Positions 2,248 to 22,175 of a DNA stretch of 64,000 bases are shown piece after piece (positions within the stretch are counted from its first letter, which is position 1; each line of letters begins with the position of its first letter). This DNA comes from Candidatus Marinacidobacterium sp. (GTDB taxonomy: Bacteria > Acidobacteriota > Vicinamibacteria > Marinacidobacterales > Marinacidobacteraceae). Position numbers and translations under genes: made by a program. The stretch lies in NCBI GenBank assembly GCA_965204755.1, contig OZ242011.1, forward strand, positions 1,856,001 through 1,920,000. Direction: 5' to 3'. The notes below the pieces were generated by a model. It worked only from the letters and a program-made list of their open reading frames with translations. It was not told the DNA's origin and made no database searches.

Positions 2248-2329
2248 TCCCCCTGCCGCCGGAAGAGGGCGTCGAGGCCGGCCCGTCGGGGGTCGGTCGG
2301 GCGTTCCGACGGGCGGCGAGGAGACGCAA

Positions 2330-4740: not shown

Positions 4741-4839
4741 TCCCCGCATGAGATCGAGTCGACCTCCCCGCGCCGGGCGCGGCAGCGTCGCAGGCGAGTC
4801 CTCCCGCTCCGCTCCCCGATCCCCGAGCCCGGAGTTCCG

Positions 4840-5886
4840 GTGATGCCGCGGCCCTCTGCGATCAGCCTCTTCGCCGGCGCCGGCGGTCTCGACATCGGCG
4901 TCGACCGGGCGCGGATCAAGACGATCTGCGCCATCGAACTGGACCGACACTGCGCCGCGACGCTGCGCCGCAACGCCCGTCGCAAGACGGTGTGGCAGGT
5001 GGACACCCGCGCCTTGGATCCGCAACGGGTTCTCGAAGTGTTCGGCATCGAGCCCGGCGAACTCACGCTGCTCCACGGGGGGCCGCCCTGCCAACCATTC
5101 AGCCAGATCGGGCACCGACGCGGGCTCGACGACCCGCGCGGCGCCCTCGTCTTCGAGATGGCGCGATTCGCGGCCGTCCTCCGGCCTTCGGCGGTCCTGA
5201 TGGAGCAGGTTCCCACCTTTCTCCAGGCCAAGAGCGCCACGGGCGAGCCGCTCGTCGAGTCTCTGCGCGAGGCGTTCTCCCGCATCGGCTACGACCTGCA
5301 CTCGCACACCCTGGATGCCCTGCACTTCGGAGTCCCGCAGAAGCGCCGTCGCGCGTTCGTCGTGTGCGTGCCCGAAGGGCAGTCGTTCTCGTTTCCCGGC
5401 ATCGCTCCCGCGGCGGTGTCCACGGTCGGCGAAGCGATCCGGGATCTCCCGAAGCCGGCGGCCAAGGGCGTGGAGCCGGCTCTGCCCAACCACACGGACA
5501 TCACTCCCGCCCGTGATCGCCAACGCATCCGCTATGTCCCGGAGGGTCTCTGGCTCTCCAAGTCACCCGGCGTGCCCCCGGACATCATGCGCAATCTCAC
5601 GAGAAAGGACACGACGAAGTTTCGCCGCCTCCATCGTGGTCTGCCTTCCCCGACGGTTCGCTGCGGCGAACCCTTCTACCACCCGACAGAACCTCGCTAC
5701 ATCACGCCGCGCGAAGCCGCTCGACTGCAAGGCTTCCCTGACGGGCATGTTCTCGTCGGGCCGATCCGCGGACGAACGGGCCAGGTTCCCGATCTGGATC
5801 AACACCGACAGGTGGCAAACGCCGTTCCTCCGCCGCTGGCGGCGGCTGTCGCTCGAAGCATCGGAGCATCGTTGTGTCTTTCGTAG
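4840..5886 (+). CDS. DNA (cytosine-5) methyltransferase of a type II R-M system
   Basis: LFAGAGG (I), GGPPCQPFS (IV), MEQV (VI), PQKRRR (VIII), REAARLQGFP (IX), QVANAVPP (X). Confidence 0.93.
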   Translation: MMPRPSAISLFAGAGGLDIGVDRARIKTICAIELDRHCAATLRRNARRKTVWQVDTRALDPQRVLEVFGIEPGELTLLHGGPPCQPFSQIGHRRGLDDPRGALVFEMARFAAVLRPSAVLMEQVPTFLQAKSATGEPLVESLREAFSRIGYDLHSHTLDALHFGVPQKRRRAFVVCVPEGQSFSFPGIAPAAVSTVGEAIRDLPKPAAKGVEPALPNHTDITPARDRQRIRYVPEGLWLSKSPGVPPDIMRNLTRKDTTKFRRLHRGLPSPTVRCGEPFYHPTEPRYITPREAARLQGFPDGHVLVGPIRGRTGQVPDLDQHRQVANAVPPPLAAAVARSIGASLCLS

Positions 5887-6866
5887 TATCCGAACTCTTC
5901 GGTCAAGCGATCGGGGCTCGGAAGGCGGCGAAGGACGCTCGAGAGGACAGCGAGACAGAGACCTCCATTCGACAGGCGTGGTGCCCGTACATGGACGCCC
6001 GGTGTGATGGCGGCGGCAACCGGGACATGATGCGAGTCGCCGCGAACGACCCGGCGATCGGGCCCCTGTTCGACAAGGCGGTCGGCGATTCGACCGGCGG
6101 CCACATTCCGTGCGGCGTTTGCAGCGTCGAGCGCCATAGCAACGGAGAGCAGTGGGCCATCTGTCCGAGACGCCTGTTGGCCTTTGGCCCCTCCGGCGTC
6201 TCCGGGTATCACGAAGCACTGGCGCAGCGGATTCTCAAGATCGGCGGCTTCGAGGCGGGACAGCGTGTCGAAGTGTGGTCCGAGATCCACCTGAAGGAGA
6301 CGGGCCCCGATCATCGGAAGTTCGATTACCGACTGGACTATGTGATGCGAGGCGTTGAGAAGAAGTCCGCACCGCTCATCATCGAGGTCATGACCTGTTC
6401 GACTTCGGGCGGCAACAAGGCGAAAGGAACGGACATGAACATGGCCTTCCGTTCCGCCGTGCTGTTCGCTCGAGGAATCCGACCGGAACCGGCGCGATCG
6501 CCCGGCGTGAATGTGCGGCAGGTGTGGGCGCGCATGGCGTCGCAACTGATCGTCAAGTCGGAGGCCGCCCTCCATTGGGGAGGCCGAGCGGTATGGGTCA
6601 TACAGGATGTGTTGGCCCAGTACATCCAAAGCCAGACGGCACTTCCTCTCGAACGCCTCCGCTCCGACGACTGGATCCCCGGCGAAGTCAATCTGATCGT
6701 CTGCAGCCTCGATGGAGGAATGAAGTTGTACTCGGGCCCGATCCGCTCGTCCAAGTCGGCTCGTCCATGTTGGCTGGAGATTCTGGGCGCCCCCCATATT
6801 CCGGCGCTGGAATCGTTGGCGCGAAAACTGGACGAGAGCGCGCCTATCGGGCAATTCGCGATCTAG
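5874..6866 (+). CDS. NotI-like type II restriction endonuclease
   Basis: four-Cys pattern CPY..RC..GVCSV..ICPRR plus D..IEVM catalytic region; overlaps the methylase stop. Confidence 0.7.
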   Translation: MSFVVSELFGQAIGARKAAKDAREDSETETSIRQAWCPYMDARCDGGGNRDMMRVAANDPAIGPLFDKAVGDSTGGHIPCGVCSVERHSNGEQWAICPRRLLAFGPSGVSGYHEALAQRILKIGGFEAGQRVEVWSEIHLKETGPDHRKFDYRLDYVMRGVEKKSAPLIIEVMTCSTSGGNKAKGTDMNMAFRSAVLFARGIRPEPARSPGVNVRQVWARMASQLIVKSEAALHWGGRAVWVIQDVLAQYIQSQTALPLERLRSDDWIPGEVNLIVCSLDGGMKLYSGPIRSSKSARPCWLEILGAPHIPALESLARKLDESAPIGQFAI

Positions 6867-6893
6867 GCCGACGGTTCCCACGGCCGGCCCAAG

Positions 6894-7007
6894 TTGCGAC
6901 CATGAGATTGCGCAGTGGCGAAAGTGTTGCCCAAGATATTGCAAATGCGACATCACGGTTGTTGCGAAAATGATGCCAATACGATTGCGAACGCGCTGCT
7001 CCCGCTC
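6894..7007 (+). repeat. degenerate ~23-bp tandem repeat upstream of AAA ATPase gene
   Basis: T(T/G)GC(G/A)A units at 6894, 6916, 6939, 6962, 6985. Confidence 0.55.
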
Positions 7008-7045
7008 TACGCTTCGCCCTCGGCGCCGTCCGGCCGCTCACTGCA

Positions 7046-8308
7046 TTGCTCCAGAACACCGCTTACCGCCCCCGCATCGCCGACCGGGAACTGGCGCAGC
7101 GCCTTCGCGCCGCCGGAGCGGTCCTGATCGAAGGTCCGCGCGGCTGCGGGAAGACGGAGATCGCGAGGTGCGCCGCCGCGAGCGAAGTCCTGCTGGACAC
7201 CGACCGGAACGCGCGCGAAGCGCTGGCGGTCGACCCGAGCGTCGTGCTCGCCGGCGACACGCCCCGCCTCTTCGACGAGTGGCAGTCCACCCCGGAGGTT
7301 TGGAACCACCTGCGACAAGCCGTGGACGACCGCCGCGAACGGGGCCAGTTCATCCTGACCGCCTCCGCCATCCCTCCGGACGACCGGACGCGCCACACCG
7401 GCGCGGGACGCGTCGGCCGCTTCCGTCTGCGCCCGATGTCGCTCGCCGAACTCGGCCGTTCGACGGGCGGAGTCTCCCTCCGCGAGCTGCTCGACGGGGA
7501 TCGCCCGTCCGCCGGAAAGGCGGAACTATCGGCAGCGGAACTCGCCGAGATCCTCTGCGTCGGCGGCTGGCCCGGACACCTCGACTCGCCGCCGAAAGCG
7601 GCCGCGCGCGCCAACCGTGACTACCTCGAAGACACCTGCCGAAAGGACCTGGAGCGGGCGGACGGCGTCCGCCGCGACCCGCGCCGCGTGAGCCGCTTCC
7701 TCAAGTCGCTCGCCCGCCACACCGCGACCTGCGCTTCGCTTGCGACCATCGCCCGCGATGTGGGCGGTTCGGAGGAAACCGTCGCCGCGCCCACCGCCCG
7801 CGCCTACCTCGCGGCCCTCGAACGAATCATGGTGGTGGAAGACCAGCCGCCCTGGTCGCCGCGGCTCCGTTCCCGCTCCCGCCTCCGCGCCGCGCCGAAG
7901 CGCCACTTCGCGGACCCGTCCCTGGCCGTGGCCGCCGTGGCCGCCGGCCCCGCCCACCTGCTCCGGGACTTCCGGTGGTTCGGCTTCCTCTTCGAGTCGC
8001 TGGTCGTCCGCGACCTCCGGGTGTACGCCCAGGCCACCGGCGGCCTCGTCCACCACTACCGCGACAACACCGGCCTCGAAGTGGACGCCGTCGTGGACGC
8101 CGGCCCCGGCCGCTGGGGAGCGTTCGAGGTGAAGATGGCCGCGGCCCGCGCCGACGAAGCCGCCGCGAACCTCCTCCGCTTCGCCGAACGGGTGGACACC
8201 GACCCCATCGGGAAACCGAGCGTCCTCGGCGTGATCGTCGCCAACGGCTACGCCTACCGCCGCCCCGACGGCGTCGCCGTCATCCCGATCACCGCACTCG
8301 GCCCGTAG
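7046..8308 (+). CDS. AAA+ ATPase with DUF4143 / PD-(D/E)XK-like C-terminus
   Basis: GPRGCGKT, FDEWQ, LRPMSLAE, KRHFADP, GFLFE, EVDAVV..FEVK. Confidence 0.9.
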   Translation: MLQNTAYRPRIADRELAQRLRAAGAVLIEGPRGCGKTEIARCAAASEVLLDTDRNAREALAVDPSVVLAGDTPRLFDEWQSTPEVWNHLRQAVDDRRERGQFILTASAIPPDDRTRHTGAGRVGRFRLRPMSLAELGRSTGGVSLRELLDGDRPSAGKAELSAAELAEILCVGGWPGHLDSPPKAAARANRDYLEDTCRKDLERADGVRRDPRRVSRFLKSLARHTATCASLATIARDVGGSEETVAAPTARAYLAALERIMVVEDQPPWSPRLRSRSRLRAAPKRHFADPSLAVAAVAAGPAHLLRDFRWFGFLFESLVVRDLRVYAQATGGLVHHYRDNTGLEVDAVVDAGPGRWGAFEVKMAAARADEAAANLLRFAERVDTDPIGKPSVLGVIVANGYAYRRPDGVAVIPITALGP

Positions 8309-8422
8309 CCGGGAAACCCGACCGCCCGCGTCCCCGGGCCGGTCGCCCCCGCCACCGGCGCAACGGATCTCGCTCCGCCGCGGCGCCGCCGGGGCGCGAG
8401 CCGCGCTCACGCCGGTGCGAAC

Positions 8423-8456
8423 TGCGACCGGAACTGACGCACGGACTCGCAACACT
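8423..8456 (+). promoter_or_regulatory. putative WYL-regulator box + weak -10 (copy 3)
   Basis: TGCGAC-CGGAACT-GACG, 11 nt, AACACT. Confidence 0.5.
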
Positions 8457-8585
8457 GGCGCAGTCCCGCCTTCGCTGCGGTCGGCGACCGGGCGGCAGCA
8501 GCGCCCGGCGCCGGCAGCGATCCGTGGCGCCGAGGCAGCCCGCGCCGCTCTGCCCGCCGAAGTCCGCCAACCATCAGGAGAACCG

Positions 8586-9671
8586 ATGACGCGAACACGA
8601 TCCTGTCTTCTTTCCGCACTCGCGCTCGCCCTCGCGCCGAGTCTCACCGCCGCGCAACCGAGAATCGAACGCGTAAACCTCAACGCCCGTCCGCAGTCCG
8701 ATTGCGCCGAATGGGGGGCCGCCGGCTTCCTCGAGGAGCAGCCGGTCGAGCGCATCGTCGCCTGCATCGCCGCCGGCTCCGACCCGAATGAGACTTTCGA
8801 CAGCGGCCGCACGGTTCTTCGCCATTCCGTCTCGATCGCGACAGAGAAGCGTCCGGAGTTGATCGATGTCGTAGAAGCATTGATCGCCGCCGGCGCCGAT
8901 GTCCACCACCGGGACCCGACCGCGAACGGGTCCGAGCCACTTGTCGCCGTGGCGGTGTCGGCAGCACTCGACTCGCGACACCGGGCGATCGCCGAGCGGG
9001 TCGTCGACGCGCTCCTCGAAGCCGGGGCCGACGCTGACGCTTCGGTGGAAGACAACGACTCCAGCGCCGACGGGATCACTCCCCTGATGATGGCGGCATT
9101 CAAGGACGCGCACCGCCTCGTCGAGGCTCTGATCCGCGCCGGCGCCGATCCCGAGGCCACCTTCAGCGGATTCACGCCACTCCATGCCGCCCTCGCCTCT
9201 CGCCAGAGGCCGCATGCGGTGGTCGAAGCGTTGCTCGATGCCGGCGCGGACACCGGTTTCCGATCGCCGGACGGACAACTCCCCATACATCGCGCCGCCA
9301 GACGGGCCGACGGCGGCGAGTTGATCTCCCTGCTCGCCGCTGCCGGCGCCGATGTCAACGCCCGGGCCACCGAAATGCGCGAGACGGCGCTCCATATCGC
9401 GGCCGGGCACAACTCGAATCGCGAAGTGATAGATGCGCTCCTGGCCGCCGGGGCGAATACGGAAGTACGGAGCAACGCCGGCCAGACTCCGCTGCACTGG
9501 TCGGTGATCTTCGCCCGGAGCACGACCGGCTTGGAGGCGCTGCTCGCCGCCGGCGCGGATCCGAATGTCGTCGATGTGCTGGGTCTTCTGCCCATCGAGT
9601 ATGCCGAGGACAACAAGTTGATTCGCGGAACGGGGGCCTATGTCAACCTGATTCGAGCGCGCTTGCGGTGA
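8586..9671 (+). CDS. secreted ankyrin-repeat protein
   Basis: signal peptide LLSALALALAPSLTA; repeated G.TPLH..A / LLAAGAD.N; AGGAG RBS. Confidence 0.9.
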   Translation: MTRTRSCLLSALALALAPSLTAAQPRIERVNLNARPQSDCAEWGAAGFLEEQPVERIVACIAAGSDPNETFDSGRTVLRHSVSIATEKRPELIDVVEALIAAGADVHHRDPTANGSEPLVAVAVSAALDSRHRAIAERVVDALLEAGADADASVEDNDSSADGITPLMMAAFKDAHRLVEALIRAGADPEATFSGFTPLHAALASRQRPHAVVEALLDAGADTGFRSPDGQLPIHRAARRADGGELISLLAAAGADVNARATEMRETALHIAAGHNSNREVIDALLAAGANTEVRSNAGQTPLHWSVIFARSTTGLEALLAAGADPNVVDVLGLLPIEYAEDNKLIRGTGAYVNLIRARLR

Positions 9672-9687
9672 CGCCGAGAAAGTAGCG

Positions 9688-10266
9688 ATGGACTCCGAAG
9701 CCGGCCGCGCGCGCTCCACGAACGCGCTCGCCACCAACCCGGTCCCGCCCGGCGCGGAACGCCCGCGCTCGTCGGCGCCGGCCGCCGAAACGGAAACGCC
9801 CGGGACGGAAACGGAGGAAAACGAAAGGGCCGAATCGGAGGACCGGCTCGTGAGGGAAGCCGTCACCGGGGGCATGGTGGTCGTGTTCCTCATCGTCGGC
9901 GGACTGGGGGCCTACTGGTTCTGGAGCGATCCGTCTTCGCCCAACCTGATCTGGACGGCCATATGGGAGGTGCTTTGGCCTTGGGGTCTGCTGGCGGCCC
10001 TCGCGGGCGGTCTCCTGCAGGGGACGCGCTGTGCTCTCCGTATCCGTCGGGAGTCCGAAGACGGCCCCGTAGAAACCGGGGAGGCGTTCGCCCTGGCCGC
10101 CTTCGCCATGTGGGGCGTCGTGCGCGGCTTCCTCAAGGAAACGAAGGAAGACGGCCAATCTCTCGCCAAGGTCCTGGTGGTCCTCGCCGCCATCGTGTTG
10201 CTGCTCCTCGTCTTCGCGCCCTCGGCGCTCGAAGACATCAAACGCTGGCTCGAAAGCCATCTCTGA
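9688..10266 (+). CDS. membrane protein, hypothetical
   Basis: about four hydrophobic segments; follows the ankyrin gene by 16 bp. Confidence 0.65.
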   Translation: MDSEAGRARSTNALATNPVPPGAERPRSSAPAAETETPGTETEENERAESEDRLVREAVTGGMVVVFLIVGGLGAYWFWSDPSSPNLIWTAIWEVLWPWGLLAALAGGLLQGTRCALRIRRESEDGPVETGEAFALAAFAMWGVVRGFLKETKEDGQSLAKVLVVLAAIVLLLLVFAPSALEDIKRWLESHL

Positions 10267-10420
10267 AACATCCCGCCCCGGACCGAATGACCCGGCCTCC
10301 ACGCCTCCCCGACTTCGACTTCGGCGGCCACCCTGGGAACCCGCGCGGCGCGCTGCCGGTCCGCCACCCGCGGCGAACGAACGCCGCCCACCCACCTCGC
10401 TTCGGCGAAGGAGAGATTCG

Positions 10421-11158
10421 ATGCTCGATTCCATAAAGGCCGACATAGAGTCCGAGAAGTCCAACCGCGCCGGGCTGCTGTCCGCGCTGGGACTCCTGCT
10501 CGTCGCCGGGCTCGTGATCTACGGGTGGCAACAGCGCGAGGAGAACAACCTCGCCCGAATCACCCGGGAGAACGAGGAGTGGGAACGGCGCGTCCGCGCC
10601 GAAGAGACTCGGCAGATCCAAGCGCGCGCGAATGCCTGGAGAGGTGTCCGGGCGGCCAATGCCCGGTGGAACGAGTTGTTCCCGTGGATGGAACGGACGA
10701 CCGAACTCCGCCAGCGAGTCCTGGCCGGGGCGGCGGGCGTGGATTGGCTGCTCAGCGACAGCAACCCGCTCGATCCGTTCGGCCTCGCTCTCGGCGCGGG
10801 CGCCATCGAGATGACCAGCCGCGTGTTCGCCCAGGCGCAGGCGCAGATCCAGTTGAAGTGGCCCGAAGTCGTCGAGGTCCTGGTCGAGATGGACGAGGCC
10901 GCGGGAGCCATGTTGCGGGCCGATGCCGCGTTACCCGGTGATGAAGCAGCCGTGGCCGCCTTCGAACGCGCCAAGGAGGTGGCCTCCCGATGGGCGGATG
11001 ACGCCAACTTGATGCAGCAGGTAGCGGCCCAGGACTTCTTCAGCGCCGGCGCGTCGGCCGCCCGTCTCAACGAGACCACTGCCGAACTCATGGCGGCGCT
11101 CGGAGAGTTGATGCCCACCCCGACGCCGTCGAACACCGGCCCCCTCACTCAGCCATGA
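10421..11158 (+). CDS. membrane-anchored helical/coiled-coil protein, hypothetical
   Basis: AAGGAG RBS; one N-terminal TM followed by E/R/A-rich helices. Confidence 0.65.
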   Translation: MLDSIKADIESEKSNRAGLLSALGLLLVAGLVIYGWQQREENNLARITRENEEWERRVRAEETRQIQARANAWRGVRAANARWNELFPWMERTTELRQRVLAGAAGVDWLLSDSNPLDPFGLALGAGAIEMTSRVFAQAQAQIQLKWPEVVEVLVEMDEAAGAMLRADAALPGDEAAVAAFERAKEVASRWADDANLMQQVAAQDFFSAGASAARLNETTAELMAALGELMPTPTPSNTGPLTQP

Positions 11159-11511
11159 CCGCCCTCCCACCCGGTCGGCGAAACGGCGCCGCCGCCTCGA
11201 CGCTCCTCTACCCGGCGACGGCGATGGCGCTCGGCGCCGCCGCCTGCATGGACGCCAGCGGCGGCGACGATCCGCTCCGGATACTCATCGGGCTCGGAGG
11301 CCCCCTCGCCACCTTGGGACTCGTGTTCCAACGCAACGCGACGATGGTGGGGATCCTCCTGGCGCTGTTCATCTGGCCGCTCGGCCTCCTCCATGCGCTG
11401 ACGAAGAGGGACCGGAGGGAAGGGGAAGACCGGGGCATCGCGAGCCGGAAGTCCGGCCGTCCCGCCGCCGCGAACCGGAAACCGCCCGCAACGACCCGGG
11501 CAACGACCTGA
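11155..11511 (+). CDS. small membrane protein (paralog of 11693..11995)
   Basis: ATGA coupling to the previous gene; LGAAAC..LIGLGG..FIWPLGLLHALTK. Confidence 0.7.
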   Translation: MTALPPGRRNGAAASTLLYPATAMALGAAACMDASGGDDPLRILIGLGGPLATLGLVFQRNATMVGILLALFIWPLGLLHALTKRDRREGEDRGIASRKSGRPAAANRKPPATTRATT

Positions 11512-11595
11512 CCCTCCATCCCCGAGCCGAAGCGCCGACCGATACCGGACGGACACCTCGCGGATCGGTTCAGCGGAGCGATCCGTCGCCCCTTC

Positions 11596-11629
11596 TGCGA
11601 CCGGATTCGGCGCAGGTCCGCCCTACCGT
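11596..11629 (+). promoter_or_regulatory. putative WYL-regulator box + -10 (copy 4)
   Basis: TGCGAC-CGGATTC-GGCG, 11 nt, TACCGT. Confidence 0.6.
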
Positions 11630-11692
11630 CGCGGTTCCCGAAGGCGGGACGATTCGTCCCGACCCGACGACTCGACAGAAAGGAAATCCGCC

Positions 11693-11995
11693 ATGACCAC
11701 CGCGCCCACCCGAAGGCGCCGCCGCCGGCCCGCTTCGTTCTTCGTCGGCGCCGCGCTCGCGCTGTCTCTCGGCGCCGCCTGCGCGGGATCCGGCAACCCC
11801 GGCACGGACCTCCTCTTCATGCTCATCGGCGTCGGCGGCGCCATCGGAACCATCATGCTCGCGTCGCGCCGCGGCGTGATGACCACGGGAGTCGTCGTGC
11901 TGACCTTCGTCTTCTGGCCGGCCGCCCTCATCCATGTCCTGACGAAAGAGCGCGATCCAGAGAAGTTGGACATCGGGCCTTCGAGCAGCGACTGA
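11693..11995 (+). CDS. small membrane protein (paralog of 11155..11511)
   Basis: AAAGGA RBS; LGAAC..LIGVGG..FVFWPAALIHVLTK. Confidence 0.7.
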   Translation: MTTAPTRRRRRRPASFFVGAALALSLGAACAGSGNPGTDLLFMLIGVGGAIGTIMLASRRGVMTTGVVVLTFVFWPAALIHVLTKERDPEKLDIGPSSSD

Positions 11996-12084
11996 CCCTC
12001 CGCCTCGCGTGCGAAGCCGGGCGGATACGACGATAGCGCGGGGAGGCCGCCGCCCGAATCATCGAATCGATCCGTCGCTCCAAA

Positions 12085-12118
12085 TGCGACCGGATCTGGC
12101 GCAACGGCGCCCTAGTCT
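12085..12118 (+). promoter_or_regulatory. putative WYL-regulator box + -10 (copy 5)
   Basis: TGCGAC-CGGATCT-GGCG, 11 nt, TAGTCT; shares upstream GATCCGTCGC with copy 4. Confidence 0.6.
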
Positions 12119-12184
12119 CCCTCGCCTACCGGATACCTGACCGGACCGAAATACGGATCTGGACATAGAAGAAAGGATACGAAC

Positions 12185-13135
12185 ATGGATCGTCGCAACT
12201 TCCTGAAACTCGGCGGCGCCGCCGGCGCGGTCGCCGCCGCGCCCGACGCCGCGGCCCGAACGACCGACCCCCCAAGCCTCGGATTCCACGCCGACCGCCG
12301 CGCCCTGCTCGCGGAACTGGCGCTCGTCGAGTTGCTGCTCGCGCAGGAGCGCCGGCCCTCCCCCGACGAACCGCCCCACCCGGAAGTCACGCTCTCCCCC
12401 GGCGCGTTCGGCTGCCGGATCTTCGCCGCCGCCGCGGACACCCGCTTCCACACCACGGTCGAGGCCGAGTGCGCCGGCGCCGGCGCCGTGACCGTCCCGC
12501 TGCCCGACCTCCGGCGCCGGCTCTCCGCCGGCAGCGGCGAAACCGTCACCGTTCGCGCGTTCGAGTCGGCGGACCGGATCGAAGCCGAATGCGGCGGCCC
12601 CGCCACCCGCATCCCCGCCCGACCCGCCGACTTCCCCGAACCCGACGCCCCGCCGCCCTCGGCGTTCACCGTCCCGGCCGACCCCCTGGCCCAATACCTC
12701 CGCTTCGTCTCGCGCGAGCGCTACGGCGTCCACCGCCCCGGCCCGCCCCGAATCCCCGACCCGGAAGCGCGGGAGCACTTCGCCCGCGAAGCGAGCCGCT
12801 CCCGCCCGACGGTGTATCCGTTCCCGGCCAACGCCGCGGTCGTCCCGCTGTGGGGAAACCCAGCCGGAAGGCGCGCCGCGCGGGGCGTCCGCAAGGACGA
12901 AATCGTCACGCTCCGCCTCGAAACCCTGATCCAGGCGTTGGCGCTCGAAGGAACCCTCGAGCGCCGCGCCCGCCTCCGCCAGGACGGGATCCGCATCTTC
13001 GTCGAGTGCGGAAAGCGCCTGCTCGCGTCCTCCACCTGCGCGCCGGGCGCCTCGGCCTCGACCACCATCGAACACCTGGCCTTCATCCGCTCCGGCCCCG
13101 ACCGGCTCGTCATCGGCGCGGAGTCCCCCGCCTGA
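12185..13135 (+). CDS. protein with twin-arginine motif and degenerate beta-clamp (DnaN domain I)-like region
   Basis: MDRRNFLKLGG; AADTRFHTTVEAECAGAGAVTVPLPDL..RIPARPADFPE..FTVPADPL resembles the DnaN N-terminal pattern; AAAGGA RBS. Confidence 0.55.
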   Translation: MDRRNFLKLGGAAGAVAAAPDAAARTTDPPSLGFHADRRALLAELALVELLLAQERRPSPDEPPHPEVTLSPGAFGCRIFAAAADTRFHTTVEAECAGAGAVTVPLPDLRRRLSAGSGETVTVRAFESADRIEAECGGPATRIPARPADFPEPDAPPPSAFTVPADPLAQYLRFVSRERYGVHRPGPPRIPDPEAREHFAREASRSRPTVYPFPANAAVVPLWGNPAGRRAARGVRKDEIVTLRLETLIQALALEGTLERRARLRQDGIRIFVECGKRLLASSTCAPGASASTTIEHLAFIRSGPDRLVIGAESPA

Positions 13136-13161
13136 CCGTCGCCCCTCACGCCTCCCCGGAC

Positions 13162-14625
13162 ATGCCCGACGAAACCGCCCCGCTCCCCCACGACCGCGCC
13201 GCCGAACTCGCGGTCCTCGGAGCGGTCCTGCTCGACCGCCGCCAGTTGGACGCCGTCCGCCAGGTCCTCGCCCCGGCCGACTTCCACGACGCCCGCCACC
13301 GCTGGATCTTCGACGCCGTCTGCTCGCTGGACACGGAGAACGAACCCATAGATGTCGTCACCCTCCGCTCCCGCCTGGCTCGGGACGGCCGGCTCGAAAC
13401 CGTCGGCGGCCCCGCCTTCCTCTCCGAACTCTTCGACGGCCTGGCGCTCTCCACGAACGCCGGCGACTACGCCCGCATCGTGCGCGGCCATTCCCTCTCC
13501 CGCCGCCTCCACCGCTACGGCAGCCGCATCGCCGCCGACGCCCCCCGCCGCGATCCCGCCGCCCTCCTCGAAGACGCCGAACGGACGCTCTTCTCCATCG
13601 CCGAAGGCCTCCAGACCAACGCCCCCGTCCCCGTCGGCGAAACCACCGACGCCCTCGCGGAGGAAGCGCAGGAATACCGGAAAGCGCTCCCCGGCATCGA
13701 AACCGGCCTGCCCGAACTCGACCGCCTCATGGGCGGACTGCGCCCGTCCGACCTCGTCCTGCTCGGCGCCCGCCCGGGAGAGGGCAAGACCAGCCTCGCC
13801 CTCAATGTCACGCTCGACGCCGCGCTCCGCGGCGCCCGCGTGCTCGTGTTCAGTCTGGAGATGTCGCTGCGGCAGATCGGCATCCGCCTGCTCTTCTCCC
13901 ACGCCCGGGTGGACGCCCGCCCGCTCTCCGAGCGCGGCGCCTATTCCGCGGACGACCGCCGCAAGATCCGAAACGCGGCCGACTCGCTCCGTCCCCTCCC
14001 GATCCGCGTGGACGACTCCCCGGTGACCCCGGTCGAACTCCGCTCGAAGGCCCGCCAACTCCGCCGCGACCCGGGCCTCGACCTGATCGTGGTGGACTAC
14101 CTCCAACTCATGCGCGCGAGCGACGACGGCCGCCGGCGCTTCGAGAACCGCAACCTGGAGATCGCCGACATCAGCCGCTCGCTGAAACTCCTGGCGAAGG
14201 AACTCGATGTCCCGGTCCTCGCGCTGTCCCAGTTGAGCCGCGCCCCCGAACAACGCGACGCCGCCGCCCCCCGCCTCTCCGACCTCCGCGAGTCCGGCTC
14301 CCTCGAACAGGACGCCGACATCGTCCTGTTCCTCCACCGCGAACGCCGCCCCGCCCCCCGCGCCCCCGAAAACGGCGCGTCCGCCGACCCCGGCCCGCCC
14401 ACCCGCCGCGTAACCGTCGCCAAGAACCGCAACGGCCCCACCGGCTCCGTCCAACTCGCCTGGCTCGACCGCTTCACCCGCTTCGCCTCCATCGCCGAAC
14501 TCGACGCCGACGCGGTGCCCGACGGTAAGGACGAATGGGAAGCCGAAGAGCCTCGGGAGCCCGCCGCCCCGGCCCAGTCCCGGACGGAAGCACCCCACGA
14601 TTCGGCCGCGGATGTGGGCTTCTGA
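13162..14625 (+). CDS. dnaB: replicative DNA helicase DnaB (probably an accessory copy)
   Basis: AELAVLGAVL, GARPGEGKT, FSLEMS, IVVDYLQLM, LSQLSR, DLRESGSLEQDAD, KNRNGPTG. Confidence 0.93.
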   Translation: MPDETAPLPHDRAAELAVLGAVLLDRRQLDAVRQVLAPADFHDARHRWIFDAVCSLDTENEPIDVVTLRSRLARDGRLETVGGPAFLSELFDGLALSTNAGDYARIVRGHSLSRRLHRYGSRIAADAPRRDPAALLEDAERTLFSIAEGLQTNAPVPVGETTDALAEEAQEYRKALPGIETGLPELDRLMGGLRPSDLVLLGARPGEGKTSLALNVTLDAALRGARVLVFSLEMSLRQIGIRLLFSHARVDARPLSERGAYSADDRRKIRNAADSLRPLPIRVDDSPVTPVELRSKARQLRRDPGLDLIVVDYLQLMRASDDGRRRFENRNLEIADISRSLKLLAKELDVPVLALSQLSRAPEQRDAAAPRLSDLRESGSLEQDADIVLFLHRERRPAPRAPENGASADPGPPTRRVTVAKNRNGPTGSVQLAWLDRFTRFASIAELDADAVPDGKDEWEAEEPREPAAPAQSRTEAPHDSAADVGF

Positions 14626-14824
14626 TGCGCCGTCGCTCACGGGCCGGTTTTAGCGCGACTACCACGGATTCCCTGAACCTCGATCCAAGTCTCGCCCGCA
14701 GCACTTCGCTCGCCCATGTGTCGCTTGAGGGCGAGCCCCAGCATTCTCCCATGGCCCACAGGAGCCTCTCGAACGGAGAAAGCGGGAACGGACTCACACG
14801 ATCCCGCGCCCCAACTCGAATCCA

Positions 14825-15148
14825 ATGAAACATCTATCCAACTACCTCGAAATGGTTGACGACTTGGTCAGTCAAGCCAAAGAGTTGTGCGTTACTCGAT
14901 GGCTGCTGCTCCTCTTCGTCCTCATTAACCTCGACCTACCCTTCAGCACACTCCCTTTCAGCAAACCCATCGTGGATCTTGAGTGGACGGACCTCCCGAT
15001 AGTTCTCGGTGGGTGGATCGCGTGGGGAGCAGTAGTCCTTTGGAGGAGAAAGGTCGCAGAACGGAAAGTTCGCGCGAAGCACTGGGTCGTAATTGCCGAC
15101 TTGGATAGACGGCTCGACCAGCGCCTCAACGGTTCCGATTCGAAATGA
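14825..15148 (+). CDS. small two-TM membrane protein, hypothetical
   Basis: lower-GC ORF with two hydrophobic segments; ATGA overlap with the next gene. Confidence 0.55.
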   Translation: MKHLSNYLEMVDDLVSQAKELCVTRWLLLLFVLINLDLPFSTLPFSKPIVDLEWTDLPIVLGGWIAWGAVVLWRRKVAERKVRAKHWVVIADLDRRLDQRLNGSDSK

Positions 15149-16113
15149 CGGCATCGCCAACCCACCCTGACGCTGCGACAGAGGCCACTCATCGCCTCCT
15201 CCGCGATGCCCTGACCGCCTCCGACCTTGATCCGGACATGCCGTCGCCGGAGGGCTCGTCCGAACTCCACCTCCTTCCCCAAGTCCTACCCCATCTCCAA
15301 CTGCTACCCGGCCTGATTCCCAAAATGATCGCCAACGGCGAGGACATCGAGGCTACTGATCGAGCGGGACGCACTCCGCTTCACTACGCGGTCCAGTACG
15401 GTAGGAACGCGGATTTGGTCAAGGCCCTGCTGGCCGCCGGCGCAGACCCCGGGGCTCGCGACGAGAACCGCCAGACACCGCTCCATCGCGCAGCCGCTTT
15501 CAGCGACAGCGCGGATGTCTTGGAGGCACTCCTGGAGGCCGGCGCGGCTTGCCACGCCCGTGACGCACGGAAGCGAACACCCCTCCACCTCGCCGCCCGC
15601 GAGGGTCGCTCCGCGGCCGTTACCGCCCTGCTCGCCGCTGGTGCAGACATCGAAGCCCGTGACGAGGACGGCGCCACGCCGTTCCATCTGGCCGTCGCCC
15701 GGAACGACGACGCCGAAGTCGTAGCCGCGTTGGAGTCTGCCGGAGAGATCAAGAACGATCGTGATGAATGGGGTCGTGCACCGATGGATTACTGTCGGAG
15801 CGAGCAAACCTATGCGGCAGGAGCACTGGGTGTGCGTCCGGGTGAAGAAGAAGGCGTCGACTTCGTTGCATTCCGTCTCGCACGATGGATGACGAGGACA
15901 TGGGGCAAGGTTCGAGATCTTCCCTTGTTGGTGGTCGTGGTAACTGCGGTCACCCTGTCGATCTTCCTGTTGATCTATTGGCCTGTTTCTTGGTTGACCT
16001 ACTGGCTGATCGAGGATCGTCTCTGGCGGCACAATGTGAACGGCATCGTCCCCGGGCTCGTCATGTTGTGGATCTGCTGGCGTGGGCGCCGTTGGTTCGT
16101 GAAAGAAGGATGA
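15145..16113 (+). CDS. ankyrin-repeat protein with C-terminal TM segments
   Basis: four TPLH/TPFH ankyrin repeats, two hydrophobic C-terminal segments. Confidence 0.88.
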   Translation: MTASPTHPDAATEATHRLLRDALTASDLDPDMPSPEGSSELHLLPQVLPHLQLLPGLIPKMIANGEDIEATDRAGRTPLHYAVQYGRNADLVKALLAAGADPGARDENRQTPLHRAAAFSDSADVLEALLEAGAACHARDARKRTPLHLAAREGRSAAVTALLAAGADIEARDEDGATPFHLAVARNDDAEVVAALESAGEIKNDRDEWGRAPMDYCRSEQTYAAGALGVRPGEEEGVDFVAFRLARWMTRTWGKVRDLPLLVVVVTAVTLSIFLLIYWPVSWLTYWLIEDRLWRHNVNGIVPGLVMLWICWRGRRWFVKEG

Positions 16114-16283
16114 CCAAGACTACGAGATCCACCCGGCCCTCTGGCGATCCAGAGGGCGAAGTCGCCGCCCGGTGTCTTTCGGACGCGCCAGCCTCAGCAC
16201 GACTGGGCCTGACCACTCGAGACGAGGACGGGAACACTTGTCTCCATCTGGTGCCGGTCGGACCTGCTCGCCTTGTGGAGTAG
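16110..16283 (+). pseudogene. truncated ankyrin gene interrupted by an IS remnant
   Basis: ATGA-coupled ORF containing RDEDGNTCLHL, ending at the IS481 fragment. Confidence 0.45.
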
Positions 16284-16284
16284 G

Positions 16285-16497
16285 CCCGGGTCGGCCGCTG
16301 CGACGGAATACGCCGGGGTCTCGATCCGGACGCTCTACCGGTGGCGGGCGGCGTACCGGCAGCGGGGTGCGGCGAGGCTGTCACCGGTCTCGCCATGCCA
16401 CATCAGACCGGGCGGCGGACGATGCCCGGCGCCTCCGGGCGGAGCGCCCCGCTTTGGGGAAGCGGAAGGTCCATCCGCTCCTTCTCTGGTTCGGTTA
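16285..16497 (+). mobile_element. IS481-family transposase remnant (5' fragment)
   Basis: AGVSIRTLYRWRAAYR HTH and frameshifted LRAERPALGKRKVHPLLL, homologous to the 17427 region. Confidence 0.65.
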
Positions 16498-16556
16498 GAG
16501 TAGGCATACGGACGACAGAGAGATCGATTCGTGCCAACTGACGAAGGAGTTCTCAA

Positions 16557-17276
16557 ATGATCTGGAGGGAAGACTTTACGCGGCTCCACATCGCGGCCGC
16601 GGTCAACGAAGAGGGCGTAGCCGCGCTCGTCGCAGCGGGTGAAGATGTCAATGCCCGCACCAAAGACGGCATTACGCCGCTCCATCTCGCCGCGATAGGG
16701 GGCGAGAACGAGGCCCTGACGACTCTGATATCCGCCGGCGCGAAAGTGAATGTCCGTGGCGGCGCCGAAGGCTGGACGCCGCTCCATGTCGCGGCCAACG
16801 GCAAGTCCGAAGGGATACTGGCGTTGGTCGCGGCGGGTGCGGATGTCGACGCCCGCGACAAGACGAAGCGAACGCCGCTCCATGTCGCGGCCGCGTTCAA
16901 CCGCGCGAAATCTGTAGCCGCGCTGATCGGATCCGGTAGCGACCCCGGTGCCAGAGCCAGATTCGGACTTACACCGCTGCATTTCGCTGCCCGTCACAAC
17001 TCGCGCGCCAAAGTCGTGACCGCGCTCATCGCCGCGGGCGCAGACATCAACGCCGTAGCCAACAGCGGCGAGACTCCTCTCCAGTGCGCGGAGATCAAGG
17101 GGAATTCGAAGATGGTGTCTGCTCTGCTGGCGGCAGGCGCGGATACCGAAGCCGGCGTCAAGCACCGATCGTCCTTCCACAGCGCGTGGAGAGTTGCTGC
17201 GACGGCCATCGTGTCTCGATTGCCCGTCTGGATGATCGTAATCGGTCTATTGGCGGTATGGATCTTCGCCTGCTGA
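16557..17276 (+). CDS. ankyrin-repeat protein with C-terminal TM anchor
   Basis: AAGGAG RBS; about six ankyrin repeats; hydrophobic C-terminus. Confidence 0.9.
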   Translation: MIWREDFTRLHIAAAVNEEGVAALVAAGEDVNARTKDGITPLHLAAIGGENEALTTLISAGAKVNVRGGAEGWTPLHVAANGKSEGILALVAAGADVDARDKTKRTPLHVAAAFNRAKSVAALIGSGSDPGARARFGLTPLHFAARHNSRAKVVTALIAAGADINAVANSGETPLQCAEIKGNSKMVSALLAAGADTEAGVKHRSSFHSAWRVAATAIVSRLPVWMIVIGLLAVWIFAC

Positions 17277-17344: not shown

Positions 17345-18285
17345 TACTTGGCGTAGACGGGGCTCGGAGCTTCGGCCGGTCTCGCGGCGTCCGCACCGGA
17401 CGCGGAAGCGGGAGTGGCCGAAGGCGGTGACGGAGGAGATCCGTCGCCTTCGGACGGAGCGCCCGAACCTGGGGAAGCGGAAGATCCATCCGCTCCTGCT
17501 CCGGTTCTGCGAGCGGCGGGGGCTGCGCTGCTCGGCGGTGATCACCATCGGCCGGCTGATCGCTGACGCCGGGGGGCTGCGCGCAGTTCCGCCACGCCCG
17601 GTCAACCGGGGCCGGCGCAAGCGCCCGCGACCCCCGAAGCCGCGCAAGCCCAAGGGCTTCCGGGCGCGGCGCGCCGGGGAGGTGCCGGCGGTGGACACCG
17701 TGATCGCGGTGTGCGACGGGGTGCGGCGTACCGGTTCGCCTGCCTCGACCTGCGCAGCCGGTTCGGCTTGGCGGTGGCCACGCCGGGGATGTCCTCCCGC
17801 TGGGCCCGGGACTTCGCCGACTTCGCCTTTGACCGGTTCCCCGCCCCGGTGGACCGGGTGCTCTCCGACAACGGCTCGGAGTACGAAGGGCGTTTTGCGG
17901 ACCTGTTGAAGGCGCGCGGGATCGCACGCTACTACACCTACCCGAAGACGCCGAAGATGAACGCCCACGCGGAGCGGTTCAACCGCACCGTCTAGGAGGA
18001 GTTCCTCCACTACCGCGAGGACCTGCTCTGGGGGAGGAGGCGAACCTCACCCTGCTGAACCGGAAGCTGGGGAAGTGGCTGCTCTGGTACAATGGGGAGC
18101 GCCCGCACGAGGCTCTGGGCCAGCGGACCCCGATCGCCGTCCTCGCGCGGGAGCGCTCGATGCTTGACCACCTCTCCCGACCGTCGCCGCCCCGAGTCGC
18201 AGAACCGGTGAAACCCCCTCCCCACCGCCCGACCAGTCGAGTTCTGTCGTCAATGAAGAAATGCCAACCCACTAGGGCCCACACA
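17345..18285 (+). mobile_element. IS481-family transposase pseudogene
   Basis: VDT..., LSDNGSEY, PKTPKMNAHAERFNRTV, YNGERPH motifs across frameshifts and an internal stop; ends ...ACA. Confidence 0.8.
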
Positions 18286-18402
18286 TGTGCTTGACCGGTG
18301 CCATCTCTCGCCCATAGAGTCCTGCTCCGTGGTCCCTCGGTCGAATGCCACCGTCGCACTTCGGCGCCCGCAAGCCGCCATCGTGCGCTCCGGGGACGCT
18401 TG

Positions 18403-19800
18403 ATGCACCGAGCCGACTTGCAGCGTTTCTTCGACGCACTAGGGCCGCGTCTCGAGATGGCGCGGACGGTGGACGAGCGACTGAACTCAGAACTGGCGTC
18501 TCGGTTCAATGTCCTCGATTACATTCGGACATCGGAGCTGGGTCTCTCCCGAGTCATTGCCGACCTTCTCGACCCGAGTGCGACCCACGGTCAACAGACG
18601 CTGTTCCTGAACACTTTTCTCCGCGGTCTGCAGTCCGCGTCGAAGAGCGCGGACCGGCCGTTGGACCTCACCCACGACTACAACGACAAGTGGAAGGTGG
18701 CGAAGGGCACCGTGCGTGTCACGGTCGAACGCACCATCCCGCCCGGCCGTCGCCGACTCGATATCTCGGTGGAGTTCAAGGGAAATGATGGTCGCATCCG
18801 GTGCCTCGCCATCGAGAACAAGCCGTACGCGGGCGACCAGAAGCGCCAGATCCAGGACTACCTCGACTTCATGGAGAGTGAGTACGGCAGCAGAGACGGA
18901 GACGAACGGACCAACCATCTCTTGATCTACCTGTCCCCAGTGGGTGAGTTGCCCTCCGAGTGGAGTGTCGAGAAGAAGCGTCTCGCGCGCGAATCTGAGG
19001 AGTACGACTTTGCCGTGATGGGTTATTCGAGGGAAGGCGTCGTCGACTCAAGCCAAGAACAGGACGGCGCGAGCGAGTCGCGTCTTCGGTTGGATTGGTC
19101 CCTCGCGGAATGGTTCGACGCATGCCGACGGGAATGCGATGTGGAGCGCCTTCGCACCTTCCTGCGGGATGCGAGAGACTTTTGCCGGCAGCACTTCGGA
19201 GGTGTCGCCATGCCCGACACGACACAGGAACAGATCCGTCAGTTTCTCGAGGATCCCGAGAATCTGAAGATCGCCATGGCAGTCCACCGCCATTGGCCCG
19301 AGGTGCGCGCGGACATCGTGAAGCGATTTGCGGACCGCCTTACAGCGCGGATATCGGCGCACCTCACGGAACACCTGCCGCAACTCGGCACCATGCGAGT
19401 TGAACACTCGGTGACTGGGCACAACACGCCATGGCAGGCCTTCAAGGTGTACCGCGACGAGTGGCAAGGGAAGGGCGTGACGATCCAGATGGAGGCCCAG
19501 AAGCGGGGGAGCACGGACTGGATCGTCGGCGTCCGCAGCCCCAAGTTGAGGGACGCCCTGAAAGCACCCTTGGCTTCGGCTCTTGGAAAGCGCAGATCGA
19601 GCACAGGATGGCCGTGGTTCCGCTGGGTCGACGATCGCTGGCGATGGTGGGGCTCCGTGAGCGTCGTGCCGGATTTGAAGCGGGACCTGGAGAACGACGG
19701 AGACGCCACGCGCTACTTCGTTGACCAGGTTGCAGAACTCTGCGAGGTCGCAGTCCCGATCATCGACGAGGCTGTTCGCAGGCCCGGGGCCGGCCGCTGA
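18403..19800 (+). CDS. PD-(D/E)XK nuclease (PDDEXK_4-like) with variable C-terminal domain
   Basis: FNVL..SELGLSRVIADLLDP..HGQ..FL, RRLDI..AIENK..DQ..QIQDY, LIYLSP; internal GGAGGT + ATG at 19210. Confidence 0.85.
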   Translation: MHRADLQRFFDALGPRLEMARTVDERLNSELASRFNVLDYIRTSELGLSRVIADLLDPSATHGQQTLFLNTFLRGLQSASKSADRPLDLTHDYNDKWKVAKGTVRVTVERTIPPGRRRLDISVEFKGNDGRIRCLAIENKPYAGDQKRQIQDYLDFMESEYGSRDGDERTNHLLIYLSPVGELPSEWSVEKKRLARESEEYDFAVMGYSREGVVDSSQEQDGASESRLRLDWSLAEWFDACRRECDVERLRTFLRDARDFCRQHFGGVAMPDTTQEQIRQFLEDPENLKIAMAVHRHWPEVRADIVKRFADRLTARISAHLTEHLPQLGTMRVEHSVTGHNTPWQAFKVYRDEWQGKGVTIQMEAQKRGSTDWIVGVRSPKLRDALKAPLASALGKRRSSTGWPWFRWVDDRWRWWGSVSVVPDLKRDLENDGDATRYFVDQVAELCEVAVPIIDEAVRRPGAGR

Positions 19801-20035
19801 CCGACGCCTGCCTCGACCGCTGCAGCGGGTTCGCCTCTGGCGACGGGCGCGCCAGAGGCGTCTGCTGCCGTCGCCCGAAGCCTTGAACCGGCCACACCTC
19901 CGCTGCTGGGCCTGAGCAGCCGGCGCCGCCCCGTTGATATGATTCGGTTCCATGCTCTCCGGGCCAACCCGATTTCGGTCGAACGGGGCGCACCGTATTC
20001 GCGGCCGCTCACGGTCAGCGCGACTTGGTTGACTG

Positions 20036-20872
20036 ATGGACGCCGGTCAAGAAGTAATCGCGCCTGTAGAGACTCAGATGGACACAGAGCGACAGGTGCT
20101 TCGCGACCGGCTTTCTGTGTTCTTCTCCGGACTCGCGCCAGCTATCGACGTGGCTCGGGCGGCACAGGAGCGACTTGACCGTCGTCTCGCTACGCGGTTC
20201 TCCGTCTTTGATGATTTCTTCTACTTCATCCACAAGAAAGAGAACACCCTTTCCCGGATCTTCCGGAGTCTGCTGGACCCTCAGGGTCGCCACGGACAGG
20301 GCAGTCGGTTCCTTGATGCCCTTCTGGAAGAAGTCAGCAGCTCCATACCGGAAAACGAACTGCCACGAACGAATCTCGAGGAGTGCCGGGTCCGTACGGA
20401 GTACGGCATCAAGAAGACCACTAGAGACGGTCGTGGCAGCATCGACATCGTTGTCGAATGGCCGAAGTCTGAGTATCGGATCGGCATCGAAAACAAGCCG
20501 TGGGCAGGCGAGCAAGGCGGTCAGGTCACGGACTATGTCAAGGCACTGCTCCGTCAGACCGAGCGGTCAACGGGCGCGAAGAGAGTGTTGTTCCTGTACT
20601 TCAGTGGTAGCGGTGAAGACCCAAAAACACTTACCGGCGAGACTGCGAGAGCAGCACACTGCCTCACAGTGCCCTATCGCTCAGATTTGAGGCAGTGCTC
20701 CGTCCAAGGGTGGCTCCGTCGTTGTCGCACAAGGTGCGAGGCAGACCGTATCCGATGGTTCCTGATGGAGATCGACGACTACATCGAGCGGTCATTCCGT
20801 CATGCCGCTGTTCCAACTGACTCCCAGGAGGGAAAAGATGAAGAACGACATCCAGCTCGAGACGGCGATTGA
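20036..20872 (+). CDS. PDDEXK_4-like nuclease domain (C-terminal domain encoded separately)
   Basis: FSVF..ENTLSRIFRSLLDP..HGQG..FL, SIDI..GIENK..EQ..QVTDY, LFLYFS. Confidence 0.8.
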   Translation: MDAGQEVIAPVETQMDTERQVLRDRLSVFFSGLAPAIDVARAAQERLDRRLATRFSVFDDFFYFIHKKENTLSRIFRSLLDPQGRHGQGSRFLDALLEEVSSSIPENELPRTNLEECRVRTEYGIKKTTRDGRGSIDIVVEWPKSEYRIGIENKPWAGEQGGQVTDYVKALLRQTERSTGAKRVLFLYFSGSGEDPKTLTGETARAAHCLTVPYRSDLRQCSVQGWLRRCRTRCEADRIRWFLMEIDDYIERSFRHAAVPTDSQEGKDEERHPARDGD

Positions 20873-21977: not shown

Positions 21978-21995
21978 AAGCGGAGTCCGCCTCAC

Positions 21996-22175
21996 CGGGG
22001 CCGCCCGCCCCCTTGACAGCGGGGGTCGCCACTGCATCCACGAGCCCGAGCGCGGCTCGGTGCACGAGCCGGTGGGCGTCGACATCCGCTCGGCGGTCGG
22101 CCGGATTGAGGCCGACTCGGTCCCTTTTGGGGCGAACGCCTATGCCGAGGACCGCCGGATCGGCTCCCCGACGAG
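21996..22175 (+). pseudogene. degenerate internal fragment of the TonB-dependent receptor gene
   Basis: ERGSVHEPVGVDIRSAVGRIEA vs ERGSVDEPAGVDFRSAVGRVEA. Confidence 0.8.

Follow-up and report, generated by a model that had tools for sequence, protein, structure and literature searches.

The stretch of DNA analysed here, hereafter the window, is 64,000 nucleotides (nt) long and comes from a genome of Candidatus Marinacidobacterium sp. The genome, G000, is a single 3.98-Mb contig that is 89% complete, and the window is G000:C1:1856001-1920000. It holds two adjacent genes on one strand. The first, open reading frame (ORF) X, encodes a truncated paralogue of the β clamp DnaN that begins with a putative twin-arginine (Tat) signal. 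The second encodes DnaB2, an extra replicative helicase. The X ATG has a ribosome-binding site, AAGGA, some 8 nt before it. The X stop codon, at 13133-13135, is separated from the DnaB2 ATG at 13162 by a gap of 26 nt. The comparisons set out below show that both genes are, by descent, in-lineage duplicates that arose separately and are of different ages. The features are collected in Table 1.

Table 1. Features of the X-DnaB2 locus and its surroundings, in window coordinates (aa, amino acids; pLDDT, predicted local distance difference test).
Feature	Position	Strand	Remarks
ORF X	12185..13135	+	316 aa; truncated DnaN paralogue bearing a Tat signal; starts MDRRNFLKLGGAAGAVAAAP
Twin-arginine signal peptide of X, residues 1-25 (predicted)	12185..12259	+	MDRRNFLK, Ala/Gly-rich h-region, AAA before R25
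Clamp domain I, X residues ~32-150	12278..12634	+	38% identity to own DnaN; pLDDT ~90
Remodelled clamp domain II, X residues ~160-296	12662..13072	+	hhalign, VIA-align; pLDDT 55-84
DnaB2, extra replicative helicase	13162..14625	+	487 aa; DnaB, DnaB_C, TIGR00665
DnaB2 N-terminal domain	~13183-13485	+	Pfam
DnaB2 RecA-like C-terminal domain	~13693-14487	+	Pfam
Imperfect inverted repeat, 27 nt	12069..12095	.	GATCCGTCGC-N7-GCGACCGGAT; 90-116 nt upstream of X start; candidate operator
Second inverted-repeat copy	11580..11606	.	upstream of the 100-aa membrane-protein gene
118-aa protein	11155-11511	+	looks paralogous to the 100-aa protein by eye; no confident family
100-aa protein	11693-11995	+	looks paralogous to the 118-aa protein by eye; no confident family
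245-aa protein	10421..11158	+	reads as having an N-terminal hydrophobic segment; no Pfam, PHROG or PADLOC family
192-aa protein	upstream of X, in the stretch 8415-17276	+	no family
Ankyrin-repeat protein	8415-9671	+	at least two of the three have hydrophobic C-terminal segments
Ankyrin-repeat protein	15145-16113	+	as above
Ankyrin-repeat protein	16557-17276	+	as above
WYL-WCX regulator gene	2225-3319		9 kb upstream of X; only WYL gene among the window ORFs scanned

The relationship of X to the clamp rests on sequence alignment. Residues 32-173 of X align with residues 1-140 of the genome's own DnaN at 38% identity over 144 aa (pairwise E 2e-21), which bears out the likeness to DnaN domain I proposed in an initial annotation of this DNA. 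The match extends further when alignments are compared. An alignment of eight X-family members (A2) set against one of 20 DnaN proteins (A3) in hhalign gave a probability of 99.7% (E 2.5e-25), pairing X 34-308 with DnaN 3-270 of 379. X terminates about one strand into the would-be domain III. Taken alone, the X sequence matches phrog_947, 'DNA polymerase processivity factor', at E 9.9e-5, and none of the DnaN families of Pfam (PF00712, PF02767, PF02768) or NCBIfam (TIGR00663) reaches E <= 0.01 on it. X-only profiles matched solved clamps in the PDB weakly (E 0.34 and 0.08). The top PDB match of the X profile, CagY, was set aside as spurious, as it is a sum of repeats with no single significant stretch. 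The alignments show X to be a homologue of the organism's own DnaN that, judged by their extent, comprises domains I and II only, domain III having been lost.

The predicted fold agrees. AlphaFold2 (AF2) gave no usable model from an X-only alignment of seven sequences (mean pLDDT 32). With DnaN rows added, alignment A4 (28 rows) gave a model with a pLDDT of 72 and a predicted template-modelling score (pTM) of 0.74, in which domain I is the better-modelled part and the first half of domain II is proline-rich and degenerate. All Foldseek matches listed for this model are β clamps (E ~3e-9). VIA-align superposes it on solved clamps with Z scores of 15-19, the best being 19.4 with a root-mean-square deviation of 3.7 Å over 215 residues, and the superposition runs from residue 30 to 296 of the model and over clamp residues 0 to 246 only. 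The initial annotation had called a clamp fold behind an export-type signal paradoxical; that combination is nevertheless present. The homology statistics, as sequence comparisons, stand apart from the AF2 result. A complex prediction with three copies of X 30-316, run without controls, scored 0.00 against a mark of 0.42 and speaks neither for nor against a ring.

What X lacks is as informative as what it retains. In a β clamp, the partner-binding pocket lies between domains II and III, and the dimer is closed through domains I and III. Since domain III is missing, X could not form the head-to-tail β dimer and would be without the II/III pocket for clamp-binding motifs. The absent half of the pocket includes the conserved ...CVGMPL(V) C-terminal end of this lineage's DnaN, and we take the role of these C-terminal pocket residues to be that known from E. 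coli work. Given this architecture, X cannot be a conventional sliding clamp. X is homologous to DnaN over domains I and II and superposes on it, but has two domains rather than the three of a ~370-aa chain, no pocket residues and no I/III dimer interface. It also differs in carrying an N-terminal Tat signal, in passing no DnaN family model and in charge: the isoelectric points of the X family are near-neutral to basic (7.7-8.7), whereas that of DnaN is acidic (4.6).

Two clamp domains per chain are also found in PCNA, T4 gp45, E. coli β* and short phage DnaN-like proteins. Such proteins form trimeric rings on DNA in the cytoplasm, whereas a ring is not supported for X, and we know of no two-domain clamp subunit with an export signal. 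The nearest entries to X in the ESM Atlas are short viral DnaN-like clusters of 210-264 aa with scores of 0.76-0.78; all matches fall below 0.8 and serve as leads only.

The housekeeping clamp is found elsewhere. A 379-aa DnaN, recovered with TIGR00663 and PF02768, is encoded at G000:C1:1825242-1826381, and PF00712 has no match anywhere in the G000 genome. This DnaN is flanked by a DnaA-type Walker A motif upstream and a GyrB motif downstream, which places a dnaA-dnaN-gyrB locus at 1.824-1.827 Mb, and the sister genome keeps the identical order. X thus lies outside the dnaA-dnaN-(recF)-gyrB context, 43 kb downstream of that locus and among membrane-protein genes, while DnaN itself is 30 kb upstream of the window. 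The housekeeping DnaN is divergent throughout the family; that of G000 scores 90 bits with TIGR00663 against a cut-off of 137.65, and automatic annotation may leave it unnamed. The cumulative GC-skew of G000 has its minimum at ~2.52 Mb and its maximum at ~3.91 Mb, and neither coincides with the dnaA-dnaN-gyrB locus at 1.82 Mb.

The N-terminus of X resembles those of Tat substrates (TIGR01409/PF10518), with D-R-R-N-F-L-K, an Ala/Gly-rich h-region and Ala-x-Ala, and it fits the Tat consensus, in which an N-terminal S/T-R-R-x-F-L-K precedes an h-region. The Pfam TAT_signal family (PF10518) matches residues 1-20 with 26.1 bits against a cut-off of 22.7 and is the sole Pfam family on X; NCBIfam TIGR01409 gives 18.2 bits against 16.7. 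The Tat-like start proposed for the 316-aa protein is thereby corroborated by both models. In a six-frame translation of the whole genome, the X N-terminus is the top PF10518 match (32.7 bits, E 4.7e-7). Across the eight X-family members, whose identity falls to 37%, M-D-R-R-x-F-L is invariant, as are G10, A13, G14 and P20. The twin arginines are followed by an Ala/Gly-rich stretch of 16-21 residues, and small residues precede the mature part. Cleavage is predicted, on a reading of the residues, before R25. The genome encodes TatC (PF00902) at 3877318-3877959 (E 1.2e-67). The putative Tat signal of X is more than chance, and the conservation of its motif argues for a role of X outside the cytoplasm. 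Tat cargo consists mostly of cofactor-binding redox enzymes and envelope enzymes. Searches of titles and abstracts returned nothing on Tat-signal clamps or on the genus Marinacidobacterium, and a full-text search pairing sliding clamp with twin-arginine gave no Tat-signal clamp among the matches listed.

The distribution of X is narrow. A word-indexed search found six close homologues at 79-93% identity, five of them full length (313-322 aa) and one a 214-aa fragment. The divergent members of the family are P0007 and the protein of G001, a genome of the same genus. An exhaustive search of 1.84 billion representatives returned seven matches. Two are X-type proteins (P0003 and P0007), four are this lineage's DnaN proteins, whole or in fragments, and one is P0008. 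The last, a 2258-aa tandem-repeat protein with 19 matched stretches, resembles X residues 10-51 by composition and was rejected as spurious. Among 41 related genomes, X has matches in 25, namely G000 and all 24 others of the same family, and in none of the 16 from two sister families. A second, X-type match is present only in G000 and G001; in each of the other 23 family genomes the single match is the genome's own DnaN, in an open frame of 379-431 aa. A scan of genome contigs found the G001 locus as the sole relative of X, and a scan of metagenome contigs found no relative among 599 pattern matches.

Within this narrow range, X has changed quickly. The X family is monophyletic in the tree (100/100) on very long branches. 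Between the G000 and G001 types there are ~2 changes per site in X and ~0.6 in the DnaN of the same genomes, which shows that X evolves about three times faster than DnaN. With branches this long, the tree gives X no firm attachment point within DnaN. All eight members are nonetheless intact ORFs of 313-365 aa with a common start and no frameshift or stop, and 80 columns of their alignment are invariant, over a span in which DnaN itself has diverged to ~65% identity.

These figures bear on whether X is a gene at all. It could be a decaying, functionless partial duplicate of dnaN whose frame has stayed open because stops are rare at 70% G+C, with DnaB2 redundant. The excess of changes over DnaN and the degenerate, proline-rich first half of domain II would fit decay, as would the six non-synonymous against five synonymous differences seen in X among strains, which come from 40 of 233 differences. 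The intact frames, shared start and Tat motif, and invariant columns do not fit it, nor do the good ribosome-binding site and the purifying selection on DnaB2 described below. Because the frames are intact and the motifs invariant, a pseudogene is improbable, and we give this account only a small chance. The genome comparisons show X to be a real gene restricted to one genus which, by its relationships, derives from a duplicate of the organism's own DnaN.

We turn to the helicase. Pfam families PF00772 (DnaB N; E 5.7e-26) and PF03796 (DnaB_C; E 8.5e-83) cover DnaB2, and it scores 408.2 bits with TIGR00665, 'replicative DNA helicase', above the equivalog cut-off of 385.25. A genome search with PF03796 found two helicases, the window copy and one at 1370056-1371642 on the minus strand. 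The latter is the housekeeping dnaB. By eye, the translations upstream of it read as the ribosomal proteins S6, S18 and L9, and the one downstream as RadA-like. DnaB2 is therefore extra, as was claimed at the outset, and stands outside that ribosomal-protein context. The two objections that the initial annotation had raised against itself, that no clamp fold would be predicted or that this would be the only dnaB, in its conserved context, do not hold.

The two helicases share 75% identity over 445 aa. GARPGEGKTS, DLIVVDYLQLM, SQLSR and LRESGSLEQDAD occur in both, with one residue differing in LRESGSLEQDAD; we take these stretches to be Walker A, Walker B and later helicase motifs. The report of a DnaB with its helicase motifs starting 26 bp after X is borne out by these identical or near-identical stretches. 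DnaB2 departs from the housekeeping copy in the N-terminal domain, in a loop at residues 401-412 and in the C-terminal tail. Similarity at the DNA level is confined to 13183-14494, at 77.6%.

In a tree of 25 rows, DnaB2 and its orthologue P0043 (90% identity) are sister to the G000 housekeeping DnaB and P0044 with 96/92 support, inside the genus clade, and the G001-type DnaBs branch outside this group. A single DnaB, together with a RadA-type match, was found in each of the genomes G001, G008, G014 and G004. The stem branch of DnaB2 is 0.33 and that of the housekeeping copy 0.12, a 2.7-fold difference. The ratio of non-synonymous to synonymous rates (dN/dS) is 0.275 between DnaB2 and the housekeeping copy and 0.31-0.35 for orthologue pairs. 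DnaB2 is under purifying selection. The tree shows it to be a separate and, by its branching, younger duplicate of the housekeeping dnaB, intact and present only in this species' lineage. In G022, two dnaB-radA pairs were seen (C1:1327295-1328582 and C2:508896-510183) with equal open-frame lengths, which could reflect either an assembly duplication or a real segmental one.

This placement speaks to the suggestion that the locus is a domesticated replication module acquired by horizontal transfer from a phage or an integrative and conjugative element (ICE). A variable island with integrase fragments at 17427-17995 and the short two-domain viral proteins nearest to X in the ESM Atlas, which are leads only, would suit such an origin. 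DnaB2 is, however, sister to its own housekeeping DnaB. It passes the cellular equivalog cut-off and falls far below that of phage_DnaB TIGR03600 (349.8 against 498.65 bits) and below that of the SPI-7-type island DnaB NF040583 (327 against 655). Like those extra helicases it is a second full-length DnaB in a variable region; unlike them it is a recent duplicate of a host gene and not element-borne. The detectable sequence relatives of X are DnaN proteins of this lineage only, even among the 1.84 billion representatives, and PHROG gives no match among the genes flanking X and DnaB2. The transfer of a module is contradicted and has next to no probability.

DnaB2 might instead be a target-duplication immunity gene, independent of X, that resists a helicase inhibitor made by a phage, by neighbours or by the cell itself. 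The proposal is compatible with the reading of X that we prefer. Griselimycin producers are known to use extra dnaN copies for self-resistance. DnaB2 is an intact, selected paralogue with a stem 2.7 times its parent's. The putative catalytic stretches are unchanged while the N-terminal domain, loop 401-412 and C-terminal tail differ, and the setting is a defence island. Against this, the window ORFs that were scanned include no biosynthetic genes and no genes for known inhibitors. The proposal seems rather improbable.

X and DnaB2 do keep company across strains. In 4/4 sequencing runs compared, which come from four studies and are labelled as sponge or marine metagenomes, contigs carry X and DnaB2 joined and differ from the window by 0-1.7%. 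One of the four shows no difference at all and might not be an independent sample. The strain differences listed are 40 of 233, with 11 in X and 16 in DnaB2. Those in X are five synonymous and six non-synonymous, and five of the six non-synonymous ones fall at codons 163-170, in the linker. Those in DnaB2 are eight and eight, with seven of the eight non-synonymous changes in loop codons 401-402 or the C-terminal tail. These partial data suggest that X is moderately constrained and the core of DnaB2 strongly so.

The pairing does not extend to the genus. In G001, the gene downstream of X is a single-copy RNase_T exonuclease instead of DnaB2. Because G001 has X without a second DnaB, and this exonuclease in its place, X and DnaB2 must have become neighbours only in the G000 lineage. 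DnaB2 being separate and younger than X, the pair is secondary and there was no ancestral module. An ancestral functional pair is thus not supported. We also considered the site downstream of X as a repeated collector of replication-gene duplicates. This was rejected, as the G001 exonuclease is single-copy and its G000 orthologue adjoins the WYL gene, at about window 3300-3903.

Is the pair at least transcribed together in this species? The initial annotation had the two genes co-transcribed under a WYL box. The first part is plausible from the common strand, the short gap and the terminator-like sites, of which there are 0 in 11400-15300; a scan for sigma-70-like promoters found none in the same interval. 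No RNA run is listed among the 23 sequencing runs. The second part was not supported, as nothing found links the WYL regulator to X. The WYL-WCX gene is 9 kb away, and no inverted-repeat site is found near it. The candidate operator ahead of X lies in an intergenic block that is duplicated (11512-11692 and 11996-12184, 76% identity), and both copies carry the inverted repeat. These two exact copies are the only ones that a search of the 3.98-Mb genome allowing 0-1 mismatches found, and the G001 locus shows no copy. A 9-nt direct repeat, CGGATCTGG, lies at 12091 and 12154. It occurs three times in the window, a count reached by 6/100 shuffles and so not significant by itself. The WYL-WCX gene and the RNase_T-type exonuclease gene that follows it have overlapping ends (window 2225-3903), and in G001 the orthologous exonuclease gene comes directly after X.

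The explanation that we consider best overall, and judge to be somewhat better than an even bet, is that X, while keeping the clamp fold, has been neofunctionalised and is exported by Tat, and that DnaB2 is a separate, younger spare. In outline, X would fold in the cytoplasm and then be exported by the Tat system. The exported protein would act in the envelope with its small membrane-protein neighbours, its clamp fold serving as a binding scaffold and not on DNA. DnaB2, probably on the same transcript as X in this species, would serve as a spare helicase, or a variant one, in the cytoplasm. The specific claim that X is exported and acts with the membrane-protein neighbours we hold to be possible, if somewhat short of probable. 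More tentative is the idea that the clamp fold has been moved out of replication and across the membrane to become a fast-evolving binding module that faces phage or host together with the small membrane proteins, within or beyond the envelope of a sponge- or marine-associated bacterium, and that a diverging spare DnaB has joined it in one species.

Several points weigh against this explanation. A Tat-like N-terminus can be vestigial, and the export of X is predicted only. The X N-terminus of G001 gives no signal model at E <= 0.01 in NCBIfam and no Pfam family, and that of P0007 gives no NCBIfam signal model at E <= 0.01 (only the NCBIfam scan was applied), although both proteins retain RRxFL. 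The clamp fold is partly inherited from the DnaN rows, as a usable AF2 model needed them, and domain II is modelled at a pLDDT of only 55-84. The ratio of six non-synonymous to five synonymous differences in X, from the 40 listed, is consistent with weak constraint. With a helicase gene 26 bp downstream, a role in the cytoplasm and linked to replication is easier to reconcile than one in the envelope. Finally, we know of no periplasmic role for a clamp fold; if this explanation is right, no clamp-fold protein before X is, to our knowledge, known to act outside the cytoplasm.

In a different account, already raised in the initial annotation, X and DnaB2 are a cytoplasmic decoy or dominant-negative pair. 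Here X would remain in the cytoplasm and cap full-length DnaN via domain I or soak up phage anti-clamp proteins, and DnaB2 would be a decoy or a replacement for a phage-targeted helicase. The best-conserved part of X is domain I, the domain that in known clamps meets domain III of the other subunit. The genes share a strand, are separated by 26 bp, have no terminator-like site and are paired in 4/4 runs compared; both paralogues evolve faster than their housekeeping parents, like arms-race genes; and the window is rich in defence-type genes (WYL-WCX, Vsr/Dcm/restriction enzyme, PDC-S01, PDC-S26, Schlafen-like, Fic). The Tat motif is nevertheless the most conserved feature of X across members at 37% identity, a pattern not easily accounted for if X stays in the cytoplasm. 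X also lacks domain III and the canonical binding pocket, G001 has X without DnaB2, and in PADLOC neither X nor DnaB2 fits any model. We regard a decoy pair as unlikely.

Sliding clamps are among the most conserved and constrained of proteins; their paralogues are rare and usually stay clamps. In X, a third of the ring has been lost and the charge reversed, evolution is rapid and an invariant export signal has been gained. If export is real, X would clearly exemplify how a core replisome protein can be neofunctionalised, and the clamp fold would be reusable as an extracytoplasmic scaffold. DnaB2, for its part, shows that selection can maintain a duplicated replicative helicase in a genome that is small (4 Mb) and of symbiont type, which raises ideas of helicase-directed phage or toxin pressure. 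The reach of these proposals is one genus of uncultured bacteria, with roles read from sequence.

The surroundings of the two genes are as follows. The window ranges from 61 to 76% in G+C. In the stretch 8415-17276, the coding ORFs scanned or picked by codon bias are all on the plus strand, bar one opposite-strand frame over the first ankyrin gene. As the initial annotation had it, there is no dnaA, gyrB or rplI context; instead, the two genes are surrounded by others for small membrane proteins and for ankyrin-repeat proteins. Directly 5′ of X are the 118-aa and 100-aa proteins, which by eye share Arg-rich N-termini, an LGAA(A)C motif and hydrophobic stretches. The motif resembles a lipobox, and the two are possibly lipoproteins. 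The 245-aa protein has a counterpart in G001 (L019 4946-5671), recognised by eye from shared sequence stretches, which lies upstream of X there too. This protein and proteins with hydrophobic stretches upstream are, by eye, the conserved neighbours of X in both species, and no others are. Downstream of DnaB2 come a 107-aa protein and then more ankyrin proteins, all on the plus strand. Ankyrin-repeat proteins, which are eukaryote-like, are of a type often reported from sponge symbionts.

Beyond these genes, rve-type integrase pieces lie in two overlapping ORFs in different frames at 17427-17995 and resemble the remains of a frameshifted transposase. The WYL-WCX gene sits among defence-type genes, namely those for Vsr, Dcm, PDC-S01 and a putative restriction enzyme, and such content is dense at 3991-8308, 18298-23981 and 40986-49291. 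It comprises Vsr, a Dcm methylase, a putative type II restriction enzyme, two AAA_14/DUF4143 ATPases (PADLOC PDC-S01), two PD-(D/E)XK proteins (PDC-S26), Fic, a Schlafen AlbA_2/HATPase_c_4 protein and an HTH-M78 (IrrE-like) protein.

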